Source: Rhodothermales bacterium (GTDB lineage Bacteria > Bacteroidota > Rhodothermia > Rhodothermales > DATKEJ01). Taken from it: 64,000 nt of DNA. How positions within the stretch are numbered: the first letter of the stretch is position 1; every line of letters begins with the position of its first letter. A model generated the notes under the pieces. It was not told where the DNA came from, searched no databases, and saw nothing but the letters and a program-made list of their open reading frames with translations. Below, in pieces: positions 54,804-61,115 of this stretch. The position numbers and the translations under genes are program-made. The stretch lies in NCBI GenBank assembly GCA_965222505.1, contig OZ244956.1, positions 3,412,674-3,476,673 on the forward strand, written 5' to 3'.

Positions 54804-57674
54804 TCACTCCGGCATCAGCACAAACCGGGCGTAGCGTTGTGGGTTGAGGTAGGCGCGGGCGGCTTGCTGAATGGTTTCTTCGTCGAAGGTGGCCAGGATG
54901 TTGGCGGAGCCTTCTAGAATCAGGCGGGGGTCCTGGGTGTACCGGTCGGCGTATTGGAGGGAGCGGAGCCAGTAGCCGTTTTCCCGAAGGTTGGTTTCGT
55001 GTGATCGCAGGCTGGTTTCTCGGACTTTTTCGAGGTAGGATACGTCAATCCCGAAGGTCTGGAGGCTGTCGATCTGGGTGAAGATGGTTTGGGTTAGTTC
55101 TTCTACCCGTTCCGGATCACATCCAAAGCTGATGTTGATGCGGTACAACGGCTCTGGATCACGCACGGAGGAGCCGCTGATCCGTACCCCGTAGGTGCCG
55201 CTCAGGTCTTCCCGCATGACCTCGCGGAGCTTGATGTTCATCACTTGCGTGAGGGCAAACAGTTCGAGGCGCTGTTCCCGACCCCATTCAAACGGCCCCG
55301 TAAAGGCCATATTGACCCGGCTCTTGGGTTCAAGCCCTTTGCGGATGGTTTTTTCGATGACCCCGTCCGGGGGGCGGATGCCGGTGTCCCGCCAGGTTTC
55401 CTCCCGGTTTATGTCCGGCAGGGTACCGAGGTACGTAGCGGCCAGGGTTTGGAGTTGATCCACGTCGAAGGTGCCGACGAAGTAGAACGTAAAATCGCTC
55501 AGGTCGGCGAAGCGGTCCTGGTAGAAGCGTAGGGAACCTTCCAGGTCCATCGCATCCAGGGTGGCCTGGGTGAAGGGGCGGCGGCGCGGGTGGTATTGCG
55601 CCATCGTGACGGTGATGGTGTCCCGAAACGCATTTTCCGGCGAGGCTTTATATCCCAGTACCAGATCACCCAGGCGCTGCTTATAGGACGCATAGGCGGT
55701 GGAATCGGCGCGGGGGGCCACGACGTACAGGTGGATCAACTGAAACAGCGTTTCCAGGTCTTCCGGCGAGGCCGAGCCGTTAAAACCTTCGGAAAAGGCC
55801 CCAATGGTCGGGCTCACGTTCAGCGCCTTGCCGGCCAGTTTTTTCTCCAGTTCAATCGGCCCGAAGGTTCCCACCCCACTCTGCCCGATGAGATCATCGG
55901 CGAACAGGGCCGGGATGTAGCCTTCATCCGGGGCCAAAGAGTTGCCGCCGGGGCTGGTGGCGGAAAAGATCACCTGGTCATTTTTGAAGTCGGTGGGTTT
56001 CATCACTAGGCGCACACCATTTTCCAATGTGATACGCGTGACCCCCAGGACGGAGTCGGTTTGGGTTTCAATGATGGCAGCCGGGACGGGTACATCCGGC
56101 ACCAGGGGTGCATCGGAGACGGCGTCTTCATAGGGCGTAATAGCCAGGGTGTCGATGCTGTCGAACACGGCCAATACGTCGGCCTGGGTAGGCAGCGTGA
56201 CACCGGGTTTTTCAGGGCCGTCAACGGTGATCACGCGGTTTTCGTCTGTAATCCAGCGGCTGGCGAGGGCGTTGACTTCTTCCAGTGTGATGGAAGGCAG
56301 CATGTCTTGTGCCATCGCGTACGCCCGTTCGATACCTGGGGTTGGGGTTTCCTCCAGAAAATGTCCGACATAAATGCCGGCATATCGGGCAGATTCGGTC
56401 TTGTCTCGTTCGGCATAGCCCCGCTTGAACTGGCGGAGGAGTTCGGCTTTTTGCCGTTCCAGTTCTGTGGTTGTAAAACCGTGCCGACGTACACGCTCGG
56501 CTTCGGTGAGCAATGTGGTGAGGGCACGGATGAGTCTGGCTTCCGGGGCGACTGCGTTCAGGCTGTAGAAGTCTTTGCCCCGTACGAAGGAAGACAGGCC
56601 GGCACCGGCAAACAGATATGGGGGGTCGACCTGTTGGGTCAGCTCACCGAGGCGGGTGTTGAGCATCACATCATAGAGCATCTGGGTCAGGAATTTCCGG
56701 TAGCCGCTGGTGGTCGGGTCGGGCTTGGCATCGTGCTTGTAGAGTACGCCGATGGAGGCATAAGCGGCTTCCGGGTCTGTGGCCTCGGCAAAGAGGGTTT
56801 CCGGGTGGCCCGGCACCGGATGCGTGGTGCGCGGACGCGGCGTGGCCGGATTGACCAGGTCGCCGAAGAGGGTTTTGATGTACGTCTCGATGTCAGTCGG
56901 GTCAAAATCCCCAACGGCTACCACGGCCATCAGGTCGGGCCGGTACCAGTCGCGGTAGTAGCGCACCAGTGCCTCGTGGGTAAAGGATTTCAGGCTTTCG
57001 GCTGTGCCAATGGGGAGACGGTTGGCGTAGTGGGAGCCTTGCAAGAGGATGGGGAATTGTTTGTCCTGCATCCGGGCATCGGCCCCGCGCCCGAGCCGCC
57101 ATTCTTCCACGACCACCCCGCGTTCCTTGTCGATTTCTTCCGGTTCAAAGCTGACTTCACCCGCCCAATCCCGCAAAATCTGGAAGCCGGTTTCCAGCAG
57201 TTTCGTGCTGTCCGTGCGGACCTTCAGCATGTAGACCGTTTCGTCGAAACTGGTGTAGGCGTTCAAATCCGGTCCAAAGCGGGTCCCGACCGATTCCAGG
57301 TAATCCACCAGGGCTTGTTTCTCAAAATTCGTGGTGCCGTTGAAGGCCATGTGTTCGACCACGTGGGCCAGGCCGCGTTGATCCTCGTCTTCCAGAATGG
57401 AACCTGCATTGAGCACCAGCCGCAATTCGGCCCGGTTCCGGGGGCGTTCATTGGGACGGATGTAGTACGTCAGTCCGTTGACCAGCGTCCCTTTCCGGAC
57501 CGCAGGGTCCAGGGGCAGCCGATCCAGGGTATCCGGCAGCGTCGGGACCGGGTGTACCTCGGTGGTTTCATCCGGTGGGGCCGGGGGGAGGGTCGTGATG
57601 GTACGGGGCGAGCGGCAGGCCCAGAGGCCGAGGCTCAGGGCAAGGACCCAAACGGTGCGGGGCAGTCGAGACAT
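54804..57674 (-). CDS. M16 family (pitrilysin-like) zinc peptidase, fused double-module form
   Basis: GLAHVVEHMAFNGT (HxxEH). ~956 aa with a second inactive M16 half. Signal/lipobox LSLGLWAC. ATG 57674. Confidence 0.88.
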   Translation of the reverse strand: MSRLPRTVWVLALSLGLWACRSPRTITTLPPAPPDETTEVHPVPTLPDTLDRLPLDPAVRKGTLVNGLTYYIRPNERPRNRAELRLVLNAGSILEDEDQRGLAHVVEHMAFNGTTNFEKQALVDYLESVGTRFGPDLNAYTSFDETVYMLKVRTDSTKLLETGFQILRDWAGEVSFEPEEIDKERGVVVEEWRLGRGADARMQDKQFPILLQGSHYANRLPIGTAESLKSFTHEALVRYYRDWYRPDLMAVVAVGDFDPTDIETYIKTLFGDLVNPATPRPRTTHPVPGHPETLFAEATDPEAAYASIGVLYKHDAKPDPTTSGYRKFLTQMLYDVMLNTRLGELTQQVDPPYLFAGAGLSSFVRGKDFYSLNAVAPEARLIRALTTLLTEAERVRRHGFTTTELERQKAELLRQFKRGYAERDKTESARYAGIYVGHFLEETPTPGIERAYAMAQDMLPSITLEEVNALASRWITDENRVITVDGPEKPGVTLPTQADVLAVFDSIDTLAITPYEDAVSDAPLVPDVPVPAAIIETQTDSVLGVTRITLENGVRLVMKPTDFKNDQVIFSATSPGGNSLAPDEGYIPALFADDLIGQSGVGTFGPIELEKKLAGKALNVSPTIGAFSEGFNGSASPEDLETLFQLIHLYVVAPRADSTAYASYKQRLGDLVLGYKASPENAFRDTITVTMAQYHPRRRPFTQATLDAMDLEGSLRFYQDRFADLSDFTFYFVGTFDVDQLQTLAATYLGTLPDINREETWRDTGIRPPDGVIEKTIRKGLEPKSRVNMAFTGPFEWGREQRLELFALTQVMNIKLREVMREDLSGTYGVRISGSSVRDPEPLYRINISFGCDPERVEELTQTIFTQIDSLQTFGIDVSYLEKVRETSLRSHETNLRENGYWLRSLQYADRYTQDPRLILEGSANILATFDEETIQQAARAYLNPQRYARFVLMPE

Positions 57675-57802
57675 GGTAGGCGGATTTAGCAAGTATAAGA
57701 GACCGAACGGTGTATGCCGTCCCTGCGTTGGGGTTTCGATGGGGGAAGATTTGTGCCAGACGGTAATGTGTTTTCCGAAAAGCCGTACCTTGGAAGGAAG
57801 AT

Positions 57803-57892
57803 TAGTGGTGATTGATGATTGGGCATTTACTCTGTTAGTCGCTACGCTCGTTTGTGATTGCAAACTCGAAAGTCACCAATCACCACTTACCA
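57803..57892 (+). repeat. Heptamer inverted repeat (ATTGGTG-type / CACCAAT-type) in the M16-membrane protein divergent region
   Basis: AGTGGTGATTG (57804-57814) is the perfect reverse complement of CAATCACCACT (57877-57887). Units tagtggt|gattgat|gattggg and gtcacca|atcacca|cttacca. Confidence 0.8.
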
Positions 57893-57929
57893 CACGAGGC
57901 GTAAGCCGACTGTACGTAGTAAATTACCA

Positions 57930-59180
57930 ATGTCCAATACCCACCACACCGACGTACTCTGGCGCGAGTGGCGTGTAGCCCGGCACACGGGGTACACAGA
58001 TCAACTCTATGCCCTGGTTTCCGGCACTCGCATCGGGTGGCGCAAGGCGGGGCAGATCGTCAAGGGGCTGGGGGCGTTTTATATTTTTCTGGCATTGGCG
58101 ACGCTGCTTTTACAATGGCCGTGTCCGCTGGAGTATTTGGCGCTTACCTATGGGTACAGCGTGCTGGCCCTCGTCGGGGTTACCTACCTGCTGACCTATG
58201 CCCGGACGTGGCACAGTTGGTTGGGGGAGCCCGGTACGCCCAACCGGTATCCCCGGTTCGATAAGCTCTGGGTGCTGGGGTATGCGGTAGGGCTTGGGGT
58301 GGCGTTGGTGCAATTCGGGAGTGGCTGGTGGTCTGGGTATCAGGATGTGCTGTTTGGGTATCGATCCTTTTATGGACCTGTGAAACCCTTGTGGTGGGCC
58401 TATGCTTTCGCGGTGCCGTTGGTGTTGCACTTTATGGTGATCCTAGTGCCGGTTTTGGCACATGGGTTTATGGTCGGGTACGGCATCCTGACGTTGTGTA
58501 CCGTGGTACCGTCCTATCGGTTGGCCTTTGGGTTGTTCTTGTTGGCCGGCCTGATTCAGCCATTTGCCTGGGGGGTCATGTACCGCTGGTCGGTTCCGCT
58601 GGGCCATTTGTTGTTTCGGTATGCGGCGGCATTTGATTTGAGTGGGCCGGTCGACCGCCGGTCGCGCATCACCTGGTGGAAAGGACGGCCATCGGGGGCA
58701 GCGGTTGAAGCCGCCTTACGTGCCCTCCAGCATCCGGGATGGGATGCCGTATTGGACGAGGTGCAACAGCACCGGGCGGCTTCTGGTCCGGTGGACCGGG
58801 TCCTGGACGGCCTCGGAAGCCCGAATGTGTGGTCCTATTTCATGGCCCGGCAACTGCTCCAGGGCAACCGGGAGGTGGAGTTGATCCTCTCCGAAGAGGC
58901 CGGGTCTACCTACACTTGCGAGGCGGGGGTGTTGTCTTTGAACTGGCCCGTCGTGCGTGATGCCGGTACGCTTCTGGTTCGGCTGCGGGATACGCTGGAC
59001 CGGGTGGTGATTCGGGCCGGATCGGACGAGGCGGTGATGCGGTTTGCCACGCAGGTGGATTATGCCACCGAGGAGATGGTGCGCAAGCAAGTGGCCTGTA
59101 TTGTAGAAAAAACCCTGGATGAGCACACCATAGAGGTCTTATCCCGTATCTTTGGCAGCGTCCGTTACACCCAGACGTAG
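57930..59180 (+). CDS. Hypothetical polytopic membrane protein (~7 TM) with a ~170-aa soluble C-terminal domain
   Basis: 416 aa from ATG 57930. Trp/Tyr/Gly-rich TM segments. The C-terminal region (ITWWKGRPSG...VRYTQT) matches nothing I recognise. Its stop lies 4 nt before the next ATG. Confidence 0.5.
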   Translation: MSNTHHTDVLWREWRVARHTGYTDQLYALVSGTRIGWRKAGQIVKGLGAFYIFLALATLLLQWPCPLEYLALTYGYSVLALVGVTYLLTYARTWHSWLGEPGTPNRYPRFDKLWVLGYAVGLGVALVQFGSGWWSGYQDVLFGYRSFYGPVKPLWWAYAFAVPLVLHFMVILVPVLAHGFMVGYGILTLCTVVPSYRLAFGLFLLAGLIQPFAWGVMYRWSVPLGHLLFRYAAAFDLSGPVDRRSRITWWKGRPSGAAVEAALRALQHPGWDAVLDEVQQHRAASGPVDRVLDGLGSPNVWSYFMARQLLQGNREVELILSEEAGSTYTCEAGVLSLNWPVVRDAGTLLVRLRDTLDRVVIRAGSDEAVMRFATQVDYATEEMVRKQVACIVEKTLDEHTIEVLSRIFGSVRYTQT

Positions 59181-59184
59181 ACGT

Positions 59185-60144
59185 ATGCCCCCGACCCGCG
59201 CCCAACGCAACCGCACGCTCACCCTCACCGCAGCAGAACGGCGCACCTACCGCAAGCGGCTGTTCACCCCGTGCGGCCCCTGTATCCTGCCTGACCTCCT
59301 GGACCGCACCCTTTGGGCCGACGTGTTCACGGTACTGGAATGGCTTCCGCACGGCACGGTCGATTTACTCATCGCCGACCCGCCCTACAACCTCTACAAA
59401 TCCTTCAACGGGAAACCCTTCAATGCCCGTTCGCTTCCGGCCTATGCCGATTGGCTCGATACCTGGTTGCAACCCCTTATGCCGGTCCTCAAACCAACGG
59501 CATCGGTTTACATCTGTGGCGATTGGCGCTCCGGGGCAGCTGTGCAGGAGGTGATGGGCCGGTATCTGAAGGTCCGGAACCGCATCACCTGGGAGCGTGA
59601 AAAGGGACGCGGGGCCAAAACCAACTGGAAAAACAGCAGTGAAGATGTATGGTTTGGTACCTGTTCCGGAGCATACACCTTTAATGTGGATGCCGTCAAA
59701 CTTCGTAAGCGGGTCCATGCCCCGTACACTGATGCCCAGGGCTATCCGAAGGACTGGGAAGAAACAGCAGCAGGCAAAACCCGGCTCACGCATCCCTCCA
59801 ATCTATGGACAGACCTCACGGTGCCGTTCTGGTCGATGCCGGAAAACACGGACCACCCCACCCAGAAACCAGAGAAGCTGTTGGCCAAGCTCATCCTGGC
59901 CAGTTCCAATCCGGGGGATGTCGTGCTTGATCCGTTTTTAGGGTCCGGCACCACATCGGTGGTTGCACGGAAGCTGGGGCGGCACTACATCGGCATAGAG
60001 CGAGAAGAAGTGTACGCGTGCCTCGCCGAAAAACGATTGGCACAAGCCGCCGCAGACCCCACGATTCAGGGGTATGCCGATGGAGTGTTCTGGGCGCGCA
60101 ATGCGCCCGTGCCTGCCCGGAGCCGCAGGTCAGACACGGCCTAA
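59185..60144 (+). CDS. Beta-class DNA methyltransferase (N6-adenine or N4-cytosine), no adjacent endonuclease recognised
   Basis: DLLIADPPYNL (motif IV) precedes HPTQKPEKL and VLDPFLGSGTTSVVA (motif I), which is the beta-class order. ATG 59185. Confidence 0.85.
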   Translation: MPPTRAQRNRTLTLTAAERRTYRKRLFTPCGPCILPDLLDRTLWADVFTVLEWLPHGTVDLLIADPPYNLYKSFNGKPFNARSLPAYADWLDTWLQPLMPVLKPTASVYICGDWRSGAAVQEVMGRYLKVRNRITWEREKGRGAKTNWKNSSEDVWFGTCSGAYTFNVDAVKLRKRVHAPYTDAQGYPKDWEETAAGKTRLTHPSNLWTDLTVPFWSMPENTDHPTQKPEKLLAKLILASSNPGDVVLDPFLGSGTTSVVARKLGRHYIGIEREEVYACLAEKRLAQAAADPTIQGYADGVFWARNAPVPARSRRSDTA

Positions 60145-61115
60145 ATGAAGCGGTCGATCAGGATGCAGACCACAAACAGCGGGATGTAGAGGACGGAGGC
60201 CAGTAGGACCTTCCGGGCGGCCTGGTTGGATTTGGAGCGATAGAACGCAATGGCGGGTTTCAGGAACGCAACCCCCAGGAGCAAGACCCCTGCGAGGTAC
60301 AGCCAACTGGACAGCCCCAGCGCGAAGGGCACCACGCTGGCTGCAATCACCAACACCGTGAACAGCACCGTCTGGCGTGCTGTCGAATGGCCTTCCGGCT
60401 CAACCACGGGCAACATCGCAAACCGGCCCCGGTCATAATCCTTGCGGTACATCCAGGCCAGCGACAGGAAGTGCGGCATTTGCCAGAAGAACAGTACCGC
60501 AAACAAGGCCCAGCCACCTGCGCCCAGCGAACCCGTTGCTGCCGTCCAGCCACCGAGGGCCGGAAGCGCACCGGGGATACAACCGATCAGGGTATTGTAC
60601 TTGGAGACCCGTTTCAATGGGGTGTAGATGCCGAGGTAGGTCACGGCGGTGAGTGCGGCCAGAAAAGCCGTAAGGCCGTTGATAAAAGCCCACAGTTGAA
60701 GCGTGCCAAGCAGGATGAGCACGGCGCCGAGGATCAAAACGACCGGTGCTGATACCCGGCCCGCAGCGAGGGGGCGATTGGCCGTCCGGCGCATGTTGGG
60801 GTCCAGGTGCCGTTCCAAGTAGTGGTTCAGCATACCGCATCCGGCAGCCGCCACGGTCACGCCCACCAGCGTGTGGAAGAGGCGGACGGCGGATACGCTG
60901 CCTTCCGTGCCCAGAAAAAACCCGGCCAATGCGGAAATGCCCACCAGAAACGTGATTTCCGGTTTGATGAGGTCCCAGTAGTCGAGCGCTTTGGAACGTT
61001 GCGTCCGCTCATTGGCCGACAAGTGCCGTCGCTGGTTCAAGTAAGTGCGCGGGGCGACTGTGCCGGTTTGGGCCGGGAGGGGCGGGGTTTCTGGTAACGA
61101 GGCCGGTGCGGGCAT
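60141..61115 (-). CDS. ctaB: Protoheme IX farnesyltransferase (heme O synthase)
   Basis: UbiA-family pattern: DYWDLIKPEITFL, NHYLERHLDPNMRRTANRPL, YTPLKR, FFWQMPHFLSLAWMYRKDY. Confidence 0.9.
   Translation of the reverse strand: MPAPASLPETPPLPAQTGTVAPRTYLNQRRHLSANERTQRSKALDYWDLIKPEITFLVGISALAGFFLGTEGSVSAVRLFHTLVGVTVAAAGCGMLNHYLERHLDPNMRRTANRPLAAGRVSAPVVLILGAVLILLGTLQLWAFINGLTAFLAALTAVTYLGIYTPLKRVSKYNTLIGCIPGALPALGGWTAATGSLGAGGWALFAVLFFWQMPHFLSLAWMYRKDYDRGRFAMLPVVEPEGHSTARQTVLFTVLVIAASVVPFALGLSSWLYLAGVLLLGVAFLKPAIAFYRSKSNQAARKVLLASVLYIPLFVVCILIDRFI

Follow-up and report, generated by a model that had tools for sequence, protein, structure and literature searches.

GTPase-centric conflict systems built on DO-GTPase2 and GAP1-N2 genes have been described by Kaur, Burroughs, Iyer & Aravind (eLife 2020, PMC7159879), and that paper also sets out the dispersed-paralogue pattern of effector-associated domains (EADs). 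The protein family treated below is not named in the sections consulted (PMC7159879).

The locus studied here lies in a 64-kb window (the whole stretch of DNA analyzed), where a gene for a polytopic membrane protein, which we call X, is followed by a gene for a beta-class DNA methyltransferase (Table 1). The first-pass annotation had suggested that X might be a novel effector in a module linked to the methyltransferase or, alternatively, an unrelated neighbor. Its reading of the gene layout holds throughout: X ends immediately ahead of the methyltransferase start codon, convergent ctaB, with a 4-nt overlap at the methyltransferase stop, forms the right boundary of the pair, and the divergent M16-family peptidase gene forms the left one. 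The true start of the peptidase is likely the ATG at 57674, which opens a signal-peptide-like sequence (MSRLPRT...). The spacer between X and the methyltransferase leaves room for neither a promoter nor a terminator, a promoter/terminator scan found no terminator-like site at the junction, and Rfam and promoter/terminator scans of the locus returned nothing relevant. Such spacing without a terminator implies an operon, an observation that runs against unrelated neighbors, and the two genes are probably co-transcribed. Operon partners are often functionally linked.

Table 1. Features of the X/methyltransferase locus (window positions).
Feature	Position	Strand	Details
M16-family peptidase	54804..57863	-	PF00675 + PF05193
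Gene X (membrane protein)	57930..59180	+	ORF, ATG 57930, stop TAG 59178-59180, 416 aa
X N-terminal cytosolic motif, aa 4-38	57939..58043	+	VLWREWRxxxxxxYxxxLYxLV; HMM built without X or P0002, E 1.3e-11
X TM region, about six helices, aa ~40-234	58047..58631	+	hydropathy, AF2 helices
X MID module, aa 243-310	58656..58859	+	WWxGRPxxxxVExAL linker + HEAT-like helical repeat; independent HMM, E 8e-12
X C-terminal alpha/beta domain, aa 319-412	58884..59165	+	independent HMM, E 2.3e-9
Spacer, X stop to methyltransferase ATG	59181..59184	+	4 nt, ACGT
Orphan beta-class DNA methyltransferase	59185..60144	+	ATG 59185, stop 60142-60144, 319 aa; PF01555
ctaB (heme o synthase)	60141..61115	-	TIGR01473, E 4.4e-80, above cut-off

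No nuclease, Vsr or defense gene occurs among the annotated neighbors between 43 and 64 kb of the window, in agreement with the earlier statement that no restriction endonuclease or Vsr gene is adjacent. The products of these neighbors comprise glycosyltransferase, MatE, MscS, Lnb, HhH-GPD, SnoaL and M16 proteins, CtaB, a phosphoglucomutase-family enzyme and a TonB-like protein, and a BTAD/TPR regulator is encoded 3.8 kb upstream. The pair is thus surrounded in the window by housekeeping genes rather than by a defense island.

The 416-codon frame of X is intact in two genomes, and the 73% amino acid identity between the two proteins is spread over their whole length. Ka/Ks was 0.18 for X (measured against the relative at locus L001, with a Ks of about 1) and 0.10 for the methyltransferase; both genes are under purifying selection. 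Given the 73% identity to this relative and the Ka/Ks value, X is a real gene. A word-indexed homologue search with X returned only X itself and one relative, and when the family alignment served as query only 11 proteins came up, as TM-like words saturated the candidate list. An exhaustive HMMER search with X, on the other hand, gave 35 representative clusters, with a best non-self E value of 1.7e-13. No match was obtained by tblastn of X against plasmids, no usable match to X was found in Pfam, NCBIfam or PADLOC, and the anti-phage models of PADLOC-DB 2.0 matched neither X nor P0142, another member of the family. A match to PEX6 N1 (E 0.057) was dismissed as chance.

The proteins recovered constitute an uncatalogued family, with no model in Pfam, NCBIfam or PADLOC. 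In its canonical members an N-terminal WREW motif is followed by 2-7 TM helices, the WWxxRP/HEAT-like linker, the zinc ribbon and, last, a domain of ~95 aa. HMMs built without X matched three collinear modules in X (E values in Table 1). These profile matches show that X is a divergent, zinc-ribbon-less, stand-alone member of this unnamed N-motif/TM/HEAT-like/C-domain family. It should be noted that distant members are only 21-29% identical to X, and so may not predict its function.

The N-terminal motif is common to soluble and membrane-bound members of the family and was modeled by AF2 as two helices (pLDDT 75-85). The membrane region had been described as about seven aromatic-rich TM segments; it is indeed aromatic-rich (F/W/Y making up 20% of residues), but hydropathy and AF2 together give about six helices (about 40-61, 67-90, 108-142, 152-169, 172-192 and 196-234, the first spanning 36-61 in the AF2 model, where pLDDT is low in this region). 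That the N- and C-termini of X are both cytosolic is suggested by the count of six TM helices and by the Arg/Lys-rich segments that precede the first of them and follow the last. The remaining tail, previously said to be soluble, of ~170 aa and free of recognizable motifs, is soluble and of about 180 aa (236-416), but contains two family modules. MID (pLDDT 81-87 in the AF2 model) is assigned as HEAT-like since family members match Pfam HEAT_2 and alphaRep/HEAT folds appear in Foldseek searches. The C domain is, on alignment, a degenerate copy of the ~95-aa domain of the family, whose polar signatures LFDFD, ERFAVQVGNDTD and RYxxMxC are not kept in X; the corresponding positions read LRDTLD, MRFATQVDYATE and KQVAC, and neither the FDFD nor the GNDTD signature is conserved. 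An HMM of the zinc ribbon (CPxC ... YYGCRxCxQS), which in the family follows the HEAT-like linker and precedes the C domain, did not match X, and the alignment places here a deletion of roughly 85 aa that takes out both the ribbon and the second HEAT-like repeat.

A nuclease fold had been proposed as something to look for in the C-terminal region, and no match to one was accepted from structure prediction, Foldseek or PDB profile searches. The AF2 model of X is weak (mean pLDDT 61.6), while that of P0142 is good in the soluble half. Foldseek against PDB and BFVD gave no match at E <= 1e-3, the only plausible local matches being to HEAT-like alphaRep proteins, and a profile of the C domain found no match among PDB sequences. 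Flavodoxin- and CheY-like matches to the C domain were weak (probability up to 0.82, E 0.3 or worse) and were not accepted. Overall, the Pfam, PADLOC, Foldseek and PDB profile searches revealed no nuclease-like or DNA-binding fold or motif in X.

The gene neighborhoods of the family point elsewhere. In Chloroflexota, Armatimonadota, Thermodesulfobacteriota and Verrucomicrobiota, its members occur in DO-GTPase2/GAP1-N2 operons with a recurring order: DO-GTPase2, a short soluble paralogue, a TM paralogue, an FGE-sulfatase-like gene and GAP1-N2. Pfam searches of the neighbor clusters identified DO-GTPase2 in 18 of 19 upstream-cluster genes, GAP1-N2 in 16 of 18 and FGE-sulfatase in 11 of 13. Most full-architecture members lie in these GTPase/GAP1 operons and not in respiratory ones. 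As judged from gene context, the X family belongs to predicted conflict systems that are GTPase-centric rather than methylation-based. The C domain alone is also found in HEAT-repeat proteins of Planctomycetota and, within nuo operons of Chloroflexota, fused to the C-terminus of NuoJ (PF00499, E 2e-37), a fusion present in about 10 Anaerolineae and Caldilineaceae loci. Solo members, without the N motif or TM helices, are scattered in genomes that also hold the full operon, for example those of isolates H5_CFX7 (L007 and L026), H5_CFX5 (L010, L028 and L032) and W92_265 (six loci). When tblastn was run on the window with two queries each for DO-GTPase2, GAP1-N2 and FGE-sulfatase-like proteins, one for AAA and one for a further recurrent neighbor, no match was found. 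This search covered 58 kb upstream and about 4 kb downstream of X, 64 kb in all of a genome of roughly 5.3 Mb, so a DO-GTPase/GAP1 system may exist elsewhere in it.

PF01555 (N6_N4_Mtase) gives a full-length match to the methyltransferase, at E 2.9e-42 and 145.6 bits where the cut-off is 26.7; of the 221 profile positions, 1-220 are covered. The PADLOC model MTase_II PDLC03371 matches it as well (E 2.8e-62). The motifs listed in the first-pass annotation were located at aa 65-68 (DPPY), 224-232 (HPTQKPEKL) and 251-257 (FLGSGTT); the order is that of the beta class, since motif IV precedes motif I. Identity as a CcrM equivalog (NF050803) was rejected at 121.1 bits against a cut-off of 830. The enzyme has more than 8000 homologues and is 57-82% identical to a very large family, the top 120 lying at 64-82% across phyla. 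In 27 of 80 sampled metagenome loci the homologue is followed by a restriction or candidate restriction gene, either PADLOC REase_II (5/80, E down to 4e-147) or a conserved gene of ~220 aa, k0 (22/80). The k0 product was not confirmed as a nuclease, having no match in Pfam or PDB and only a marginal PADLOC match to PDC-S32 (E 0.0017) in one of two representatives; tblastn of k0 against the window gave no credible match. Other close homologues are solitary among unrelated, partly housekeeping, neighbors, and the five loci viewed individually had unrelated neighbors including glutamate racemase, a DsbA-like protein and RuvABC. Since about one third of the 80 sampled loci carry such a downstream gene, the window copy is an orphan of a Type II R-M family. 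As had been claimed, it has no cognate restriction endonuclease beside it: its neighbors are X, which shows no nuclease family or fold, and ctaB, whose overlap with the methyltransferase stop leaves no room for a downstream (REase_II-type, k3) gene.

Co-occurrence of X homologues with methyltransferases, the check proposed for the effector idea, was not seen from either side. No methyltransferase was detected by tblastn near X-family genes in 73 loci (872 kb), and no member of the X family was found at E <= 0.1 near close methyltransferase homologues in 85 loci (577 kb). Among 12 motif-defined methyltransferase candidates in the family loci, the five longest were all non-methyltransferases by Pfam, and the loose motif-based candidates were TPR, HPPK or unannotated proteins. 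The pairing was seen again only in the close relative L001, where the methyltransferase is 82% identical and the gap is 6 nt. Synteny in L001 is identical (M16, X, methyltransferase, ctaB), so this instance is not independent. The X clade consists of these two known sequences, both methyltransferase-linked, and the linkage is consequently not independently testable within the clade. Retention of the pairing in L001, the one further clade member, is an observation against unrelated neighbors. The proposal of a novel effector of a methyltransferase-linked module is not supported by these counts, and what was found is largely what the first-pass annotation had expected of unrelated neighbors.

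The most likely explanation, to which we give a probability of roughly 60%, is that two unrelated genes, tightly packed and probably co-transcribed, sit side by side in one lineage; it is favored because no linkage was found in the 73 and 85 loci and because the methyltransferase homologues are solitary or accompanied by a restriction-type gene. X and the methyltransferase would then be without functional coupling. A genuine two-gene module is improbable. In it X, as a membrane effector or sensor that stems from a component of conflict systems, would replace the restriction enzyme, and the methyltransferase would mark self DNA or regulate X epigenetically. The close spacing, the pair conserved in one known relative, a methyltransferase family that is normally R-M-linked and here misses its restriction enzyme, and the presence of the X family in predicted conflict systems would all fit such a module. 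However, co-occurrence is 0/73 and 0/85, the partner slot of homologous R-M pairs is downstream whereas X lies upstream, X has no nuclease-like or DNA-binding fold, the sole other instance is a syntenic copy, and the surroundings are housekeeping genes. Because the two genes form an operon, each evolves under purifying selection and both members of the X clade are methyltransferase-linked, X could still have been re-wired to an orphaned R-M methyltransferase to give a new methylation-dependent module, for instance a membrane effector or sensor coupled to methylation state, an outcome that we regard as very unlikely.

Two further explanations concern X by itself. It might be a satellite of a DO-GTPase2/GAP1-N2 system elsewhere in the genome, recruited in EAD-like manner through the shared N and C modules. 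The scatter of solo members in H5_CFX7, H5_CFX5 and W92_265 fits the dispersed-paralogue pattern described for EADs (PMC7159879). A satellite role is nonetheless unlikely, as the 64-kb window contains no GTPase or GAP1 homologue and X has lost the zinc ribbon and conserved C-domain residues. We also think it unlikely that X serves the respiratory chain or heme-copper oxidase biogenesis as an accessory membrane protein, with its C domain docking onto respiratory membrane complexes. Such a role would agree with the proximity of ctaB and with the NuoJ fusions in about 10 loci, but ctaB is convergent, with the methyltransferase gene lying between it and X, most members of full architecture reside in GTPase/GAP1 operons, and the C domain of X is without the conserved polar signatures of the family. 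The deletion of roughly 85 aa and the lost motifs could suggest, finally, that X is a decaying remnant without function; the frame intact in two genomes, Ka/Ks of 0.18 at a Ks of about 1 and identity along the whole length make this highly improbable.

On this most likely explanation, X is probably a membrane-anchored scaffold or adaptor-type protein, descended from a family whose canonical members are encoded between DO-GTPase2 and FGE-sulfatase-like/GAP1-N2 genes. It has lost the zinc ribbon and those polar signatures that are most conserved in the C domain. Most likely it functions as a stand-alone membrane protein, its HEAT-like and C-terminal modules putatively serving protein-protein contacts, because the ribbon and signatures are lost and no partner lies in the window, while the gene is still under purifying selection. 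The methyltransferase is a lone representative of a beta-class family that is widespread and highly conserved, and as an orphan enzyme it most likely methylates the genome. The result for the locus is mostly a correction: what looks like a new defense module is better read as an orphan methyltransferase of R-M type beside X, itself a stray and reduced relative of a component of GTPase conflict systems. The definition of the family, a by-product, is of more use than the locus itself. If its C domain were a homotypic adaptor, it would link poorly understood GTPase systems to respiration.

Compared with known enzymes, the methyltransferase resembles those of Type II R-M systems in its full-length PF01555 match, beta-class motif order and MTase_II match, and differs from them in having no restriction-enzyme gene at the locus, where convergent ctaB lies downstream. 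The nearest solved structure by sequence is M.BceJIV (PDB 8URK; E 8.3e-36 over aa 46-290), an orphan GTWWAC N6-adenine methyltransferase of Burkholderia cenocepacia. Like the window enzyme it is an orphan of the beta class, but the two are only distantly related, and its specificity is not transferable to the window enzyme. CcrM-type orphans belong to the same Pfam family, and there is partial similarity to the NCBIfam CcrM model, but the window enzyme lacks the CcrM C-terminal domain and only its C-terminal catalytic stretch aligns to 6PBD. With regard to X, the C domain of the family matches no Pfam EAD model, and a fusion to a subunit of a respiratory complex would be atypical for an EAD; like EADs, however, this domain is always C-terminal, is attached to unrelated N-terminal parts (TM/HEAT, long HEAT arrays or NuoJ) and occurs in several dispersed paralogues per genome. 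Relative to the components of DO-GTPase2/GAP1-N2 systems, X is not accompanied by a neighboring GTPase, GAP1 or FGE-sulfatase-like gene, is without the zinc ribbon, the second HEAT-like repeat and the FDFD and GNDTD signatures, and occurs singly instead of in a soluble-plus-TM tandem pair, yet it has the same three collinear modules and polytopic TM core.

The first-pass annotation of this locus, in which the gene for a membrane protein (X) directly precedes a DNA methyltransferase gene between an M16 peptidase gene and ctaB, was correct as to the 4-nt spacer, the strands and the beta-class motifs (DPPY at aa 65-68, followed by HPTQKPEKL and FLGSGTT at aa 224-257, an order typical of the beta class). 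X had rightly been called polytopic, with about six TM helices rather than ~7 and a soluble tail of ~180 rather than ~170 aa. The other annotated genes at 43-64 kb of the window (glycosyltransferase, MatE, MscS, Lnb, HhH-GPD, BTAD/TPR regulator, SnoaL, phosphoglucomutase-family enzyme and TonB-like protein) are all ordinary; none of the annotated genes in this interval is a nuclease or known defence gene, in agreement with the reported lack of an adjacent restriction endonuclease. The GC content of the pair (0.55-0.63) is similar to that of its flanks. A strongly negative AT skew (-0.37 to -0.43) with positive GC skew falls on the stretch of X that encodes the TM helices, where T-rich hydrophobic codons abound; it is a compositional effect and no sign of foreign DNA. 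The M16 peptidase has an alternative start (MSRLPRT..., signal-peptide-like) to TTG 57863, whose use would leave a divergent intergenic region upstream of X, presumably containing both promoters.

Features of the window, motifs of the X family and coordinates in compared loci (L-numbers)
Feature	Position	Strand	Details
Gene X	ATG 57930 to TAG 59178-59180	+	416 aa
X/methyltransferase spacer	before ATG 59185		4 bases, ACGT
Methyltransferase	59185-60144	+	319 aa; full-length PF01555 match, E 2.9e-42
ctaB	60141-61115	-	TIGR01473, E 4e-80; convergent, overlaps methyltransferase stop by 4 nt
M16 peptidase	54804-57863	-	divergent
Alternative M16 start	ATG 57674	-	
X/M16 intergenic region with that start	57672-57929		~255 bp
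Skewed stretch	58000-58750		
X family, N-terminal motif (N)			WxxI(I/L)WREWRNxxDEEYAxxLFELV
X family, TM helices	after N-terminal motif		variable block
X family, linker	after TM block		YRxxxFWWRxRPxxxEVExAL
X family, HEAT-like repeats			some members match Pfam HEAT_2
X family, zinc ribbon (ZnR)			CPxC...YYGCRxCGQS
X family, C-terminal domain (C)			~95 aa; VVAVLD...RVNWLxRRxLFDFDxVEIxxAxDEDVERFAVQVGNDTDxxRxxRYxxMxC...LSENTxRILxxxFGxV
Tandem X-family arrays	L007, L008, L013, L014, L034, L036 (e.g. L008:6958-10612)		2-3 paralogues
NuoJ-C domain fusions	L053-L054, L057-L061, L064, L067, L068 (e.g. L060:7473-8312)		
HEAT-repeat + C domain proteins	L066:5697-8486, L078:2710-4695		Planctomycetota
HEAT-repeat + C domain protein	L056:7251-8996		unclassified metagenome-assembled genome
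Tandem soluble C-domain proteins	L069:3004-5102		Rhodothermaceae MAG
Gene downstream of methyltransferase homologues	L086-L157 (e.g. L087:3916-4575, L096:5472-6128)		~220 aa
murI-adjacent methyltransferase	6001-6927 in L002, L004-L006		

X is a real gene. P0002, the relative encoded on a 3.8-kb Logan contig (L001), shares 73% identity with it along the whole protein, with a Nei-Gojobori Ka/Ks of 0.18 (Ks about 1); the corresponding value for the methyltransferase is 0.10. In L001 too, a divergent gene precedes X, the methyltransferase follows after a gap of 6 nt and a convergent gene comes last, in positions matching the window order of M16 peptidase, X, methyltransferase and ctaB. This confirms that the arrangement is conserved, but it does not count as a second, independent case of the pairing.

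Pfam, NCBIfam and PADLOC all lack a match to X. When 1.84 billion cluster representatives were searched exhaustively with HMMER, 35 clusters came up at E <= 1e-3 (best non-self match 1.7e-13), every match falling in two to four separate stretches. Alignment of the matched proteins yielded the family architecture, and HMMs of four modules (N, MID for the linker and HEAT-like region, ZnR and C) were made without X and P0002. N, MID and C matched X in the correct order (E 1.3e-11, 8e-12 and 2.3e-9) and had no match in the window outside its reading frame; the C-terminal part, in which no motif had been recognised, thus contains two modules. The zinc-ribbon HMM did not match X, where a deletion of ~85 aa takes out the second HEAT-like repeat along with the ribbon. 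The hydrophobic pattern of the C domain survives in X, but its conserved polar signatures do not. This makes X a divergent and reduced member of a family for which the searched libraries contain no model.

A scan of genomes placed the family at 73 loci, mostly in Anaerolineae, Caldilineaceae and other Chloroflexota, with the remainder in Armatimonadota, Thermodesulfobacteriota, Planctomycetota, Verrucomicrobiota and one Rhodothermaceae MAG, often with several paralogues per genome. According to gene maps, full-architecture members are typically third in a conserved co-directional cluster, which begins with genes for a ~330-aa protein and a short soluble paralogue without TM helices (N-MID-ZnR-C); behind the TM paralogue come genes for proteins of ~215 and ~550 aa. 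By Pfam, the flanking genes encode DO-GTPase2 (PF19993; 18/19 members), an FGE-sulfatase-like protein (PF03781; 11/13) and GAP1-N2 (PF20013; 16/18), and some loci have an additional ClpB-like AAA_2 ATPase. These clusters correspond to the GTPase-centric conflict systems of GAP1-N2 type that Kaur et al. predicted (PMC7159879). Their paper describes hosts in Chloroflexi, Planctomycetes and Verrucomicrobia, FGS-domain effectors and TM-containing variable components and, in the text consulted, does not name the X family.

The modules also occur in other settings. Tandem arrays usually have a ~300-aa soluble form (N-MID-ZnR-C, no TM) directly upstream of one or two TM forms, with 4-nt overlaps, suggesting hetero-oligomers built from shared modules. 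In ~10 genomes of Anaerolineae, Caldilineaceae and other Chloroflexota, NuoJ (PF00499, E 2e-37, five TM helices) bears the C domain as a C-terminal extension within otherwise normal nuoG-H-I-J-K-L-M-N operons, an unexpected fusion of a respiratory subunit to a conflict-system-associated domain. The C domain likewise terminates long HEAT-repeat proteins (580-930 aa, up to 11 HEAT_2 stretches), the three tabulated examples having no predicted TM helices. At L069, it ends two tandem soluble ~310-aa proteins, one with a zinc ribbon; neither matches Pfam and no GTPase or GAP1 gene is nearby, making this another stand-alone context outside Chloroflexota.

Are X and the methyltransferase functionally linked? 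The window methyltransferase had no tblastn match in the 73 X-family loci (872 kb), where a loose motif screen returned 12 ORFs; by Pfam, none of the five longest was a DNA methyltransferase. Conversely, five individually examined methyltransferase homologues had unrelated neighbours (glutamate racemase, DsbA-like protein, RuvABC and others), 80 further metagenome loci (57-68% identity) were added, and no N, MID or C module was present at E <= 0.1 in 85 methyltransferase loci (577 kb). Co-occurrence was thus absent from both sides. The AF2 model of X (mean pLDDT 61.6, from a shallow alignment of 11 sequences) reached 75-87 only in the helices at the N terminus, in the HEAT-like stretch at aa 250-310 and in the C domain at aa 358-416. 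That of the family member P0142 averaged 77, with its soluble half mostly at 82-95, and combines helical repeats with a zinc-ribbon region rich in beta structure and a small C domain of alpha/beta type. In PDB and BFVD, Foldseek gave no match at E <= 1e-3, the only coherent local matches being HEAT-like alphaRep proteins, and the C-domain profile had none in PDB. No nuclease or known sensor fold, the kinds suggested for this search, was detected, nor was a DNA-binding fold, which argues against X as an R-like effector. The proposed novel methyltransferase-linked defence effector does not hold up, and the alternative already offered, an unrelated neighbour, is best supported.

We favour, with a confidence of about 0.6, co-transcribed neighbours without shared function. 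X would have evolved from a component of a conflict system; it would be anchored in the membrane with cytosolic N and C termini and may contact other proteins through its HEAT-like and C-terminal modules. The methyltransferase would be an orphan member of an R-M family. Against this reading, the two known members of X's own clade are both methyltransferase-linked, and distant relatives (21-29% identity) may not predict its function. A genuine X-methyltransferase module is nevertheless quite improbable given the 73 and 85 loci. That X serves as satellite of a DO-GTPase/GAP1 system encoded elsewhere in the genome is unlikely; the partner proteins had no tblastn match within the 64-kb window. A respiratory or heme-related accessory role, to which the neighbouring ctaB gene and the fusions with NuoJ point, is similarly doubtful, and decay to a remnant, contradicted by Ka/Ks, is very improbable. 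The finding is of modest value, in that it draws attention to a domain family not yet described.

The methyltransferase itself is ordinary. It has >8000 homologues (the top 120 at 64-82% identity), from sources including Chloroflexota, Cyanobacteria, Thermodesulforhabdaceae and Moorellales. Immediately downstream of the methyltransferase in 22 of the 80 metagenome loci lies a conserved co-directional gene whose ~220-aa product, with motifs including MADxAFxD...VDV(K)T (D...VDVK-type) and GALGWGQIQI, has no convincing match in Pfam, PADLOC or PDB and probably represents a Type II restriction endonuclease family not yet catalogued; in another 5/80 the downstream gene matches PADLOC REase_II PDLC03461 (E down to 4e-147). 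These genes place the enzyme in a Type II R-M-type family that is often solitary. In Aggregatilinea-like Anaerolineae, a homologue lies 10 nt downstream of murI (glutamate racemase), and the order Ser/Thr kinase, murI, methyltransferase is kept in several assemblies, suggesting an orphan copy inherited vertically. The window enzyme, an orphan, falls below the CcrM equivalog threshold; its nearest solved relative is M.BceJIV (8URK, E 8e-36), a GTWWAC enzyme and likewise an orphan. Beside it, X is a reduced, stand-alone variant of a component from a known, purely predicted kind of system.
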